Origin: Flaccisagitta enflata
Lineage: Eukaryota
DNA: 64,000 nt
Reading direction: 5' to 3'
Assembly: GCA_965153355.1 (NCBI GenBank)
Contig: OZ231126.1
Coordinates: forward strand, 21,762,001-21,826,000
Part shown: one piece after another, positions 40,213 through 46,776 of the stretch
Position numbering within the stretch: position 1 is the first letter of the stretch
Layout of the letters: every line of letters begins with the position of its first letter
The notes under the pieces: generated by a model
The model's input: only the letters and a program-made list of their open reading frames with translations
The model's database searches: none
Told to the model about the DNA's origin: nothing
Program-made: the position numbers and the translations under genes

Positions 40213-40797
40213 CTAATCAGAGGTAACATAAGATCCGCACCCGAGGGCTCTGTCGTGACAAGTGCACAAAATTCCCCTTTCAAGAAGCCGGTTAGGAGGC
40301 TCAATGCCGCCGGTTCCATCCAATTCCAAACGAAGGCCGAGCTCAGACCCTTGAATCCATTTGTTGCTCGATTTTGCTTTAGAGCTCACCAAATCCGGAT
40401 CCACAGGCTTGTTACCGTTAATAAACTGCGGCTGAACTTCGAAGTTCCCGTTTTCCAGCCGAACTCGATTTAGTTGTGCACCGATATAGTAATAATTGAC
40501 ATCGTTATACTTGTGTTGAACATCCCGGCGCTCGGTCCACAGAATATCGGCCATTATGTTCATGGCTTCCTTGTCAATTCATCAAATCGAAGCCATTGCC
40601 CAACTTCTTGCACTCACCTTTCGCCGCATCCCATCTAATTGGCCACTCCAATCTCTTCCAAATAACGAAATCATTGACATCATCACTAAAATCTATCACT
40701 CCCATATGCTCCTTATCGGACAAACTGATCCATTTGCTGTCGATATCCTTTATCCAGTTTTGAAACTGTTTCGAAATCATATGTATCCATTCATCCA
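40213..40797 (-). CDS. Secreted Cys-rich/lectin-like gene, terminal exon: divergent C-type-lectin-like domain with one frameshift near 40576 (possible pseudogene or assembly error)
   Basis: Branch-like tactgac, pyrimidine tract and ttcag| acceptor, phase 1. Reads WDAAKGECKKLGNGFDLMN[shift]DKEAMNIM...YYYIGA...FINGNKPV...RGILC, resembling the CTLD pattern W-x-x-A-x-x-x-C...L...WIG...IC. Joins the track ORFs 40574-40798 and 40213-40563. Confidence 0.6.
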
Positions 40798-40978
40798 CTG
40801 AACAAAAAATGGAAAAAGTTTAAGTCAGTAAAACAATTTTGATCCAAGGAGTTTATGACAAGTGGAACAATATCTATCTACCAAAAAAGTAGACCAATAA
40901 AGGCGGCTAATCGCCGACTGTAAAAAAGTCGTAAATTGGTGTGTCTTTTTTTCAGTGCATGTTTTTCTGTGTGTGCAT

Positions 40979-41820
40979 CTCTCTCTCTCTCTCTCTCTCT
41001 CTCTCTCTCTCTCTCTCTCTCTCTCTCTCTCTCTCTCTCTCTCTCTCTCTCTCTCTCTCTCTCTTGGTGTGTGTGTGTGTGTGTGTGTGTGTGTGTGTGT
41101 GTGTGTGTGTGTGTGTGTGTGTGTGTGTGTGTGTGTGTGTGTGTGTGTGTGCCTGTGAGTGTGCGTGCATGTGTGTGCGTGCATGCGTGTCTGTGCCTGT
41201 GAATGTGTGTGTGTGTGTGTGTGTGTGTGTCTCTCTCTCTCTCTCTCTCTCTCTCTCTCTCTCTCTCTCTCTCTCTCTCTCTCTCTCTCTCTCTCTCTCT
41301 CTCTCTCTCTCTCTCTCTCTCTCTCTCTCTCTGTCTCTCTCTCTCTCTCTCTCTCTCTCTCTCTCTCTCTCTCTCTCTCTCTCTCTCTCTCTCTCTCTCT
41401 CTCTCTCTCTCTCTCTCTCTCTCTCTCTCTCTCTCTCTCTCTCTCTCTCTCTCTCTCTCTCTCTCTCTCTCTCTCTCTCTCTCTCTCTCTCTCTCTCTCT
41501 CTCTCTCTCTCTCTCTCTCTCTCTCTCTCTCTCTCTCTCTCTCTCTCTCTCTCTCTCTCTCTCTCTCTCTCTCTCTCTCTCTCTCTCTCTCTCTCTCTCT
41601 CTCTCTCTCTCTCTCTCTCTCTCTCTCTCTCTCTCTCTCTCTCTCTCTCTCTCTCTCTCTCTCTCTCTCTCTCTCTCTCTCTCTCTCTCTCTCTCTCTGT
41701 CTCTCTGTCTCTCTCTCTCTGTCTCTCTCTCTCTCTCTTTCTCTCTCTCTCTCTCTCTCTCTCTCTCTCTCTCTCTCTCTCTCTCTCTCTCTCTCTCTCT
41801 CTCTCTCTCTCTCTCTCTCT
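40979..41820. repeat. Compound (CT)n/(TG)n/(CT)n microsatellite
   Basis: Direct inspection; other long dinucleotide tracts at 19924-20338, 36322-36780 and 52758-53060. Confidence 0.95.
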
Positions 41821-42957
41821 TAGAATAAAATATCAAAGCTACCGTCATAAAACTTAGGGTCAATTTGCCTAACATCTTTAGTATATCCTAGTGTTACATA
41901 AGGCTAAAAAATGGGATCTATGAAAAATATCATTTTTTTCAAAAATGCGAAAAGATAAAAAAAGATTCAAAAATTCATAACGCCAAAACTAACGATCGTA
42001 GAGACTTCTGGTTGGCGCCATTTGAAAGAGAAAAATAAGTTCTTTCTTAGCTGTGAGTATCCAAAAATGTATCATCCCAGCCCAAAAACTGCACAACTTT
42101 CAAAAATTGCTGCAAACCGAAAATGGAAAAATTTATTTCTCCCCTACATTTCAAAAAGTCGAATTACGTAATTCGACTTTTTTCCAACTATTGTCTTGCG
42201 AGCCCTCACTGACTACTTACAAAGGGCATCACTCCATCTTGCGAACCTAAAATAGCAAACATCTGACCCAAAATACTATCTATAACCAAATAGATACGGG
42301 CAGACGATTGTTACCTCTGTTACCAAAATTCAACAAGTAACCCGAGAGCAACATAGTTGATTTTTATATACCATTATTTTTTTAGTTGTATCAGTTTTGT
42401 CGTGGCTCTTATTTCTAAATGCTTACATCACAGCAATGTGAATGGTGTTTTTCAAAACAAATGTGATGTACTGATGTAAGTCTAGACTCTCGCCAATATC
42501 TACATGGTTGTGGCATATTTTTTTAGAATTCATGACAAGTGGAACTATATCCCTCACTATACCCAAACTGAAAAAATTGGAAGAGGGCCGTGTGAACCCT
42601 CATTGACTAGTTTATTCGCGCACCATTCCTAATTTTCCTAAAAACAGAATCTGAAAAACAATCTGCCTCACGTAACCAAAAAGCGTACTGCTCACCAGAA
42701 GTAGTTGAAGGCAAATGATTGTTACTTGTGTTACCAAGATTTGATAAATCACCCAAGGGCAACATTGTTAAGAAACCATACCCTCAAAGGATTGAATCGA
42801 GGTCAAGCATAATACGACCGCCGGACATTCTAATCCAAGGTAATGAGTAGTTTGATAAGTGGAACAATATCCCTTACTAAACCCAAACTGAAATAAATGG
42901 AGTGTCTAGTTGAGCTCGCCGATCAACTTTTTTTTCATGGTTGAAGGTTGTACATAC

Positions 42958-43182
42958 TTGGAGCGAGTTGCCAATTTACGAACCGCGTTGAGCGTTGATT
43001 ATCAACCGACTTTTGGTCGAATGGAATCATAACGTAGCTTTTACCATTCAACTTCATCCCATTTATATGATTTTCCAACTTTTCTTTGACGATGACATTT
43101 AATTCTGCATCGAGAGAGGACGCAACGATAGTAACAAAGGGTGAAAGACCTTTTGATGAGAGGGTATGCCTTTGCTTTGCAC
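42958..43182 (-). CDS. Secreted Cys-rich/lectin-like gene, exon 4 (spacer AKQRHTLSSK...VNWQLAP)
   Basis: Acceptor cctttttaag|, donor A|GTATGT; 225 nt, open frame, phase 1-1. Confidence 0.7.
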
Positions 43183-43258
43183 CTTAAAAAGGTTCTTTCT
43201 CCAAATTCTTTAGAGCGATTTCAATGACTGCCTTTCTTTTGAGGAATATCAACAGTTC

Positions 43259-43452
43259 TTTGGTCGAGTGCTACGCGACTCTAAACCTCGCTTTGTCCGT
43301 TGGTCAATCGGTCTGTGACATTTTTCTTATTATGTTTTTTTTTTTTGCGGTCTTTGGGCTCAATACTCCTGCCCAAATGATCTAATGACCTCAAAAACAG
43401 CCCCTACCGGCCCACCCACACGCAACTGGGGTAGCCGTGTATCTGCCCTTGT
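43259..43452 (+). mobile_element. HINE-like element in intron 3 of the lectin-like gene
   Basis: ggtcgagtgctacgcgact...cacgcaactgggggtagccgtgtatctgcccttgt. Confidence 0.7.
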
Positions 43453-43666
43453 CTCTCTCTCTCTCTCTCTCTCTCTCTCTCTCTCTCTCTCTCTCTCTCT
43501 CTCTCTCTCTCTCTCTCTCTCTCTCTCTCTCTCTCTCTCTCTCTCTCTCTCTCTCTCTCTTTCTTTCTGGTTACTTGCGCAGATTTGAAGCAATACCAAG
43601 ACAATATGAGAAATTTTTTTCAAGATTTTGATGTAAAAGCTCTAATGTGAGATCAATAAGACGTAC

Positions 43667-43852
43667 TTTTTACGCAACAATGTTTGAATTTGCAGCCATT
43701 AATGCCAACGCATTCTCGACCATTCGTCCATCCGCGTCTACAACAAACGCCGATTCCACAGTAGGGACACTCTCCTCCGCGTCCTCTACATCCTCCTTTA
43801 TTCCAGCATTCCTCGTTTTCATGACGTAGGTAATCATAATGTTCGAGAATTC
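43667..43852 (-). CDS. Secreted Cys-rich/lectin-like gene, exon 3: 10-Cys module
   Basis: Acceptor aacccag|, donor A|GTACGT; 186 nt, phase 1-1. Translates ILEHYDYLRHENEECWNKGGCRGRGGECPYCGIGVCCRRGWTNGRECVGINGCKFKHCCVK. Confidence 0.8.
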
Positions 43853-45747: not shown

Positions 45748-45875
45748 CAGTGTTATGGACCGATGGAATAACCAACAGTCTGTCGGCGACAGACATAGCG
45801 CTTGTTCTATCTCCGTCTGCCTAACCTTTTCAAAACAGTGGTCTCTGGACAACAGCGAAGTTTCTTAATATCATA

Positions 45876-46356
45876 CCGTATTTCCCGCATTTATCACCCC
45901 CCCCCCTCTAATTAGCGCCCCCTTCCTTTTCAATATAGAGAGAGCACATGGAACAAGGCCGGATACACGGCAATCCATTCGCGGACGGTTTGGCAGGAGC
46001 AGTAATGCAAAAGCGGCGATCATTTTAAAAATGTTACTCACCTACCGACCAACACGGCAAGTTCTAGAGTCGCGTGCCCGCGACTAAAAACTGTAATTTT
46101 GAAAAAAATCTTATCAAATTGATTTTAGATAAAAGTTTTTATTAGCAAAAAAAAATTGAATTGGTAAGCAATGCAAAAATTTTTTCTGTTTTATTGCTTC
46201 ATTGCACTGAATCATAAAATATTTGTAAAAAGCTGTAAGTTTTGTATATAATAATCTATACACGAGTCAATGAGGGGCGCTTATTGCAGGTTGAAAAATG
46301 ACAATATTTCATTTCAATTTCAAAAGTGCTCCGGGCGCTAATTACAGGAAATACGG
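45876..46356. mobile_element. TA-flanked pogo/Tigger-like MITE with a nested HINE (45952-46090)
   Basis: TA|ccgtatttcc ... ggaaatacgg|TA; subterminal aattagcgccc / gggcgctaatt. Confidence 0.7.
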
Positions 46357-46377
46357 TAATATCATCATGATAACGAT

Positions 46378-46590
46378 TTTTTGTCGCGTGCACGCGACTC
46401 TATAACCTAACCCGATATGTCAGTTGGTTGGTCAGACGGTCCGTTGGTTGGCCCGTGACACTTTGCTTTTTTTGGCATTTTCAGGTGATTTCCACATTAC
46501 TGCTAAGGCCTAAATGCTTAGTTAACCTTCTTCAACACTGCCCCTGCCCACCCGCATTAGACTTGGATGGCCGTCAATCCGGCCTCGTTA
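46378..46590 (+). mobile_element. HINE-like element next to the exon 2 donor of the lectin-like gene
   Basis: gtcgcgtgcacgcgact...cccctgcccacccgc...ggccgtcaatccggcc. Confidence 0.7.
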
Positions 46591-46601
46591 ACACGACTTA
46601 C

Positions 46602-46676
46602 CATCGCCTTCTTCATTGCATTTAATCAGTTTGCTTATAAAGAGAATCATCAAGATCGTTCGGATGTGTATTTTGG
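46602..46676 (-). CDS. Secreted Cys-rich/lectin-like gene, exon 2 (signal peptide KIHIRTILMILFISKLIKC-NEEGD)
   Basis: Acceptor ttttcttctcatag| and perfect donor G|GTAAGT; 75 nt, phase 1-1; hydrophobic core. Confidence 0.7.
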
Positions 46677-46757
46677 CTATGAGAAGAAAATGCAACTGTT
46701 GGGTAGGTTGGGCTTATTTCGGTCATAAGATTTTGTCCATTTGCAAGCAGCTTTTAC

Positions 46758-46776
46758 TTTCTATCCAAAACCCCAT
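46758..46776 (-). CDS. Secreted Cys-rich/C-type-lectin-like gene, exon 1 (MGFWIE)
   Basis: Minus strand ttttgcag|gtggATGGGGTTTTGGATAGAAA|gtaaaa. The phase-1 donor joins exon 2 in frame. Short exon with a weak donor. Confidence 0.5.

Follow-up and report, generated by a model that had tools for sequence, protein, structure and literature searches.

The question raised by this locus is whether five short minus-strand segments, lying between positions 40213 and 46776 of a stretch of Flaccisagitta enflata (Eukaryota) DNA, are the exons of one gene and, if so, what that gene makes. The stretch (hereafter the window) comprises 64,000 nucleotides (nt), i.e. positions 21,762,001 to 21,826,000 of the forward strand of contig OZ231126.1 in GenBank assembly GCA_965153355.1. 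A first-pass annotation, made from the letters alone, proposed a hidden, spliced, lineage-specific gene whose product combines a signal peptide, a 10-Cys module, a spacer and a divergent C-type lectin domain. Our results point to a real, spliced animal gene of restricted taxonomic range, read from the minus strand and with a probable secreted product of ~364 residues; its copy in the window is broken by a five-base deletion; taken as a whole, we consider this reading about evenly poised between right and wrong. The secretion, fold and binding role of the product are inferred.

Read on the minus strand and joined by script, the five segments are proposed exon 1 (46776-46758, 19 nt), proposed exon 2 (46676-46602, 75 nt), proposed exon 3 (43852-43667, 186 nt), exon 4 (43182-42958, 225 nt) and exon 5 (40797-40213, 585 nt), separated by introns of 81, 2749, 484 and 2160 nt, which are packed with microsatellites, tandem repeats and an inverted-repeat element. 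All four introns begin with GT and end with AG, with donors gtaaaa, gtaagt, gtacgt and gtatgt and with pyrimidine-rich runs at the acceptors, and all four are in phase 1, i.e. they split a codon after its first base. The five segments of the first-pass annotation, with their coordinates, splice-site ends and uniform intron phase, thus match the window DNA, and the N terminus of the joined frame reads as it was quoted there. The further claim that the segments splice into one frame does not hold, however: after 242 open codons the joined frame meets a TGA (40576-40574) inside exon 5, with the remaining 121 codons in the +1 frame, a break that was passed over in the 'repaired' protein of ~362 residues.

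Splicing of the last intron is directly observed in RNA. Three RNA runs (X1, X2 and X3) were compared with exon 5, of which X1, labeled no more closely than as a marine metatranscriptome, contains only 9% of the sampled words; from X2 nothing could be placed on the locus. One X1 contig (record 1; 296 nt, depth 4.8) covers 40603-40797 with 189 of 195 bases identical and extends 101 nt past 40797; the 30 nt of this extension that are shown match exactly, as reverse complement, the 3'-terminal 30 nt of exon 4. Because the contig joins exon 5 directly to the end of exon 4, the 2160-nt intron has been removed in RNA at the 42958/40797 junction, one of those at which the first-pass annotation had suggested that RNA be sought; exon 4/5 splicing and expression are thereby shown in one marine metatranscriptome, and the 3' end of exon 4 is proven in RNA. 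The six base differences from the window, of which by codon reading one is silent and five alter three residues (N to K, K to G and S to D), imply that the transcript comes from another allele or a close relative and not from the exact window copy; the S to D change agrees with the intact metagenome proteins described below. The contig ends at 40603 and is therefore silent on the presence in the expressed allele of the five bases missing from the window, and the raw-read run X3, in which none of ~12 million reads was placed, counts as no test. Separately, a pile of short X1 contigs (49-222 nt, summed depth up to 161) lies within intron 4 at 40872-40975, a segment that by eye recurs at ~42540 and ~42880; this pile resembles a family of short repeats that is abundant or transcribed, and does not look like a part of the gene.

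How far does the transcript extend upstream of exon 4? Exon 4 encodes a Cys-free 75-residue 'spacer', and since an in-frame stop directly abuts its acceptor and both an early Met and a signal sequence are missing from it, it needs upstream coding exons; a Cys-bearing domain of extracellular type, moreover, needs a signal peptide. Proposed exon 3, situated 484 nt upstream in the right phase, appears to be the natural partner of exon 4, and exons 1-3 probably belong to the same transcript as exons 4 and 5. Two points weigh against placing much trust in this assignment. First, the combination of GT-AG ends, phase 1-1 boundaries and an open frame is cheap in this repeat-rich DNA, with 36 such candidates of at least 150 nt on the minus strand of 42959-48000, nearly all of them in tandem repeats, so junction logic by itself proves little. 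Second, exons 1-3 are putative, being read from sequence logic. Exon 3 does, however, stand apart from the chance candidates in composition, with ten Cys in 62 residues versus 0-5 Cys in all the others in that interval.

The same evidence bears on a two-gene explanation, in which exons 1-3 would encode a ~98-residue secreted Cys-rich peptide precursor ending five codons into 'intron 3', and exons 4 and 5 would belong to a separate transcript with other 5' exons. Should the donor at 43667/43666 go unused, the exon 3 frame would read ...VKSTSY and then stop; a signal peptide followed by an acidic propeptide and a Cys-rich mature peptide is a common precursor layout, and the exon 4/5 junction is the sole one seen in RNA. 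Set against this are the in-frame stop ahead of exon 4, its want of an early Met or signal of its own, the position of exon 3 on the same strand at a short distance, in matching phase and with a good donor, and the fact that 42959-48000 holds no other non-repeat candidate exon. On balance we judge two genes to be distinctly unlikely, the least probable of the alternatives considered here, and continue with the single five-exon gene.

The N-terminal end of that gene is its most tentative part. Exon 1, read from sequence only, would provide the ATG plus 16 nt before the donor A/gtaaaa, so that a possible signal peptide would begin with six codons and a third from this exon; exon 1 is the weakest element of the model, as a coding exon so short is easily found by chance. 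Exon 2 (acceptor ttcttctcatag, donor G/gtaagt) would supply the hydrophobic core of the putative signal peptide and then an acidic stretch; in the open frame of exon 2 itself, Met16 is the sole in-frame upstream ATG within the exon. The Kyte-Doolittle mean over nine residues peaks at 2.7 over residues 13-21, with charged residues before this core, and a putative cleavage site after ...IKC was placed by eye. A signal peptide encoded by exons 1 and 2, as first proposed, is hence plausible insofar as a hydrophobic core is present, with the qualification that hydropathy is the sole basis for it and that exon 1 is itself putative.

Exon 3 continues with an acidic linker and a Gly-rich module in which the ten Cys claimed for it are indeed present, with the spacing C-x5-C-x6-C-x2-C-x4-CC-x10-C-x5-C-x5-CC. 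This module has no match in Pfam or the ESM Atlas, and no homolog was found in a word-index search, which covered longer proteins only; against the sequences of solved structures its best match is conotoxin GS (expectation value, E=1.5 over 30 residues), which is not significant. Exon 4 likewise has no Pfam match, and the second part of exon 5 no usable match in the ESM Atlas. A described architecture with such a 10-Cys module was not found in the literature, as far as can be judged from the parts available of what were only general reviews on C-type lectins and venoms.

Relatives are known for the part of the protein encoded by exon 5. The first part of this exon (40797-40577), which is in frame with exon 4 and carries a W-x2-A-x3-C helix motif, ends at the premature TGA; the second part (40578-40213) is open in the +1 frame only, over 121 codons (40578-40216) followed by the stop TAG (40215-40213), and contains conserved LDGTGG and LC-x-C motifs. 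The first AATAAA downstream of this stop, a possible polyadenylation signal found by pattern scan, is 403 nt away at 39809-39804, a region without RNA coverage. An exhaustive phmmer search with the +1 part against 1.84 billion representative proteins gave two matches, i.e. P0002 (190 residues, 98% identical, E=1.2e-74) and P0003 (218 residues, 36% identical, E=7.4e-5), which represent clusters of eight and three members, respectively. Cluster 1 comprises seven intact 190-residue versions, found on 11 contigs and 97-99% identical, together with P0006; cluster 2 is 35-36% identical. The contigs that carry the members of both clusters are 599-1416 nt long and all belong to ENA metagenome assemblies. 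The intact 190-residue proteins begin at the first Met within exon 5, a start that would fit gene calls on unspliced genomic contigs.

Profile searches of a 5.8-billion-protein set (383-2000 and 51-382 residues) gave no further relatives and no spliced full-length form, none of 62 pattern matches among Joint Genome Institute metagenome contigs, from a single-protein query, was confirmed, and tblastn found no second copy of exons 2-5 within the window. The family consists of two clusters among ~15 billion proteins. With one junction seen in RNA and relatives only in two marine metagenome clusters, the proposal of a hidden, spliced and lineage-specific gene is supported. In the family alignment of 11 members C183 does not vary, while C57, C174 and C176 are almost invariant; because cluster 2 retains the reading frame, four Cys and the LDGTGG motif, the family appears to have been under long-term constraint.

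Comparison with the seven intact proteins locates the lesion in the window copy to 40581-40574, where the intact relatives read ...LMNWM(D/N)KEAM... and the window DNA reads AATTG-ACAAGG. Since Trp and Met each have a single codon, the window must lack five bases here, with loss of the Trp-Met pair, a shift to the +1 frame and termination at TGA. The distant P0003 also retains two residues at this position (...LLNYLDKDG...), implying that the window state is the derived one. The first part of exon 5 is 97% identical to the intact relatives, and because the +1 part is still free of stops and 97% identical over 121 codons, the lesion must be either very recent or an assembly error. As a candidate means of restoring the frame, a 52-nt mini-intron (donor G/gtgagt at 40617, acceptor after 40566) was rejected, given that the X1 RNA reads through this donor to 40603 and that the intact relatives keep the encoded residues. 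The window copy as written is predicted to be disabled, in that translation would end with codon 242 and most of the C-terminal domain would not be made.

The window copy is not the only broken form. P0006, a 94-residue member of cluster 1 on two contigs, has a different frameshift a few codons further on, just after ...EAMNIMAD. At that position P0006 and the window copy both have Asn, where the intact forms have Thr or Ser, and the broken forms may represent one haplotype or pseudogene lineage. In wild marine populations, intact alleles exist beside at least one frameshifted form other than that of the window.

Should the locus, then, be regarded as a decaying orphan, i.e. a pseudogene without current function, of which the intact forms are younger or luckier copies? 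The frameshift and premature stop in the window, the differently frameshifted P0006 and the tiny size of the family, with its two clusters, would all fit such a reading, and the finding of two different frameshifted forms among nine distinct versions hints at relaxed constraint, which counts against our own interpretation. On the other hand, seven intact versions on 11 contigs outnumber the broken ones, the relative at 35-36% identity argues for long-term constraint, the gene is transcribed and spliced in nature, and the near-intact state of the +1 part suggests a recent lesion or an assembly error. We therefore think a pseudogene improbable, albeit slightly less so than two separate genes, and favor a gene that has intact alleles elsewhere and is disabled in this copy.

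The remaining question concerns the ~140-residue C-terminal domain encoded by exon 5, for which the first-pass annotation had proposed a divergent C-type lectin domain. For comparison, 33 bacterial C-type lectin domains with complete hallmarks were taken from a motif scan as a positive control, all 33 of which match Pfam Lectin_C (PF00059). Alignment by hhalign of the exon 5 family with the profile of these domains gave a score of 24.8 (P=0.002), in register on the segment W-x2-A-x3-C...G-x2-L (query 47-69, template 19-39). None of 300 column shuffles reached this score (mean 11.6, standard deviation 2.5, maximum 21.0), and the reversed alignment scored 8.8. Among 330 real open reading frame decoys from the same bacterial loci, 11 reached it, ten with an hhalign probability of at least 90% and one (L098) with 21%; counting those ten as true C-type lectin domains leaves one of 320 decoys that reaches the score. 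When the clusters were run singly, both matched the same template columns (P=0.046 for P0002 and 0.0016 for P0003). Greedy alignment (mact 0.01) was collinear over the whole domain, with low confidence, and placed the YYYIGA / SYFVGA segments of the family opposite the WWIGL of the template. A search with the family profile of 177,635 sequences of solved structures returned only DEC-205 (E=0.78), a receptor with multiple C-type lectin domains, in five of which the W-x2-A-x3-C...G-x2-L segment was matched.

Predicted structures point in the same direction for one of the two clusters. The AlphaFold2 model of P0002, built from the 11-sequence alignment with a mean predicted local distance difference test (pLDDT) score of 35, has the order strand, helix, strand, helix, strands. 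Among the 46 Foldseek rows shown for this low-confidence model, C-type lectin domain proteins account for 36, against nine other proteins and one unclear case; struthiocalcin ranks first (E=0.019). VIA-align, which is independent of Foldseek, compared the same model with 48,161 representative chains and gave 42 with Z of at least 2; C-type lectin domains make up 39 of the 41 rows shown, and their matches span residues 26-180 of the model. The class of these structural rows was judged partly by entry title.

Several observations weigh against a C-type-lectin-like fold. Neither the two pieces of exon 5 nor intact P0002, P0003 and P0005 gave a row for Lectin_C (gathering score 22.6 bits) at E up to 10, so membership of this Pfam family is not supported, and single-sequence searches of solved structures returned unrelated noise only. 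The hhalign probability is just 13.7%, and with default settings the alignment extends over 21 columns. The family alignment, when inspected, shows the WND and EPN/QPD motifs in none of the 11 members, and a canonical WIGL is not apparent either; E88, P89, N90, W117 and D119 are invariant, and N118 nearly so, among the 33 controls. The Cys spacing of the family, with its C-terminal LC-x-C-x6-C, is non-canonical, no pair being spaced like the inner disulfide, which runs from the third strand to the loop following the fourth, although C57 with either C174 or C176 could form the outer pair, from first helix to last strand. In the structural comparisons, no Foldseek row reached E of 0.001 or below, and VIA-align Z scores were at most 3.2, in a range (Z under 8) that is common for unrelated folds. 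The P0003 model (mean pLDDT 30) gave a random mix in which none of 50 rows was a C-type lectin domain; the fold result for the P0002 model is not replicated with that of P0003, albeit the P0003 outcome also indicates that a poor model does not drift towards a C-type lectin fold by default.

These observations would be accommodated by an unrelated or new alpha/beta fold, in which the short helix motif (W-x2-A-x3-C, then G-x2-L) arose by convergence. The missing Pfam match, the low hhalign probability over few columns, the failure of the P0003 model to find any C-type lectin domain and the absence of the canonical motifs and second disulfide are all as such a fold would have them. Convergence accounts less readily for a score above all 300 shuffles and all but one of the 320 decoys with probability below 90%, for the independent placement of both clusters on the same template columns, and for the predominance of C-type lectin domains among the VIA-align and Foldseek rows of the P0002 model, the strand and helix order of which also fits. 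An unrelated fold is a serious contender, in our estimation falling a little short of even, and we lean modestly towards a very divergent C-type-lectin-like fold. The 'divergent C-type lectin domain' of the first-pass annotation is in this sense plausible, by the shuffles and the P0002 model, while recognition by Pfam, a convincing hhalign probability and agreement from the P0003 model did not follow.

If the favored interpretation is correct, a signal peptide from exons 1 and 2 would direct the ~364-residue product to secretion; exon 3 would then contribute its acidic linker and a disulfide-rich 10-Cys knot, which may stabilize the protein or offer another surface for binding. A Cys-free spacer would follow from exon 4 together with the first portion of exon 5, and exon 5 would also supply the C-terminal domain with its probably very divergent C-type-lectin-like fold. 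Were that domain to bind a ligand, the ligand would more probably be a protein or a surface, bound in a non-classical manner, than a sugar bound in a calcium-dependent one. With the knot and the lectin-like domain as two binding surfaces, the protein might serve in immune recognition, in adhesion or in a venom-like role, none of which the window copy could fulfill, as the five-base deletion in exon 5 would shift its frame and prevent it from making the protein. The strongest form of this proposal, i.e. a lineage-restricted three-module secreted protein that joins a 10-Cys knot and a spacer domain, both of them new, to a C-type-lectin-like domain of extreme divergence, is confined to one marine animal lineage, lies ~17 kb from Abd-B, and segregates as intact and independently frameshifted alleles, we regard as doubtful, if somewhat less improbable than a pseudogene. 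Immune or venom-like genes that evolve fast typically show a presence/absence pattern of the kind that this form of the proposal would entail.

The overall results provide evidence for a real, lineage-restricted gene of modest interest, with one proven junction, a 5' half that comes from sequence logic, a possibly C-type-lectin-like end and a disabled copy in the assembly. Such a gene would escape annotation based on open reading frames or homology, its exons being short, its introns rich in microsatellites and repeats and its domains outside any Pfam family, yet in the sea it is both expressed and spliced. If the C-type-lectin-like fold is correct, the domain would lie at the far edge of the superfamily, where methods for detecting remote homology could usefully be tried on it. 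The occurrence of intact beside frameshifted versions would make the locus a candidate for a natural loss-of-function polymorphism in a putative secreted binding protein. Otherwise, it would be one more lineage-specific secreted protein, with an assembly copy that is non-functional as written.

With respect to the surroundings of the gene, an open frame on the plus strand at 21882-22784 contains a homeodomain (Pfam E=1.6e-16), its best solved relative being Abdominal-B (E=2.3e-21), followed by Hox9-13; the five-exon gene is therefore ~17 kb distant from a Hox gene of posterior type, which is on the opposite strand, and the window seems to lie where a Hox cluster has its posterior end. On the plus strand at 10089-11084, frames rich in GC and in Ala may be an upstream coding exon of the homeodomain gene. 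A 541-codon open frame at 54533-56158 (plus strand), where the window is richest in GC (52%), matched no Pfam family at E up to 0.01 and might be one exon of a further, unannotated gene. Within intron 2, a 68-nt inverted repeat (45635-45702 and 46419-46486; 79% complementary, arms 716 nt apart), beside long tandem arrays of 9-14-nt units, looks like a small non-autonomous transposon.

Comparison with known systems helps to place the predicted protein. The inhibitor-cystine-knot and conotoxin-like peptides resemble exon 3 in its C-x6-C...CC...C...C core, in keeping with the non-significant conotoxin GS match, but the Cys of exon 3 number ten, not six, and exon 3 is part of a larger protein, not of a short precursor. 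Invertebrate multi-module secreted C-type lectin proteins, in which a C-type lectin domain is linked with other extracellular modules, are similar in overall layout, in that a putative signal peptide and an unrelated module rich in Cys are combined here with a lectin-like domain at the C terminus, and in the phase 1-1 exons, which are typical of shuffled extracellular modules; they differ in that the 10-Cys module and spacer found here match no Pfam family. A further likeness is to the C-type lectin-like superfamily, with which the family shares the helix motif in register, the strand and helix order of the P0002 model, a conserved Cys in the first helix and another near the C terminus, and to which nearly all the nearest structural rows of that model belong. 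In this superfamily the EPN or QPD motif together with WND, which form calcium site 2 and bind sugar, define the true lectins and not the fold, and non-lectin members are often without calcium and sugar motifs, as in this family; the non-sugar-binding members include snake-venom C-type lectin-like proteins, the domains of natural killer cell receptors and the eggshell proteins ovocleidin and struthiocalcin. The family differs from the superfamily in its absence of a Pfam match, of a canonical WIGL, of WND and EPN/QPD and of the canonical second disulfide, and in a likeness that extends over ~21 columns.

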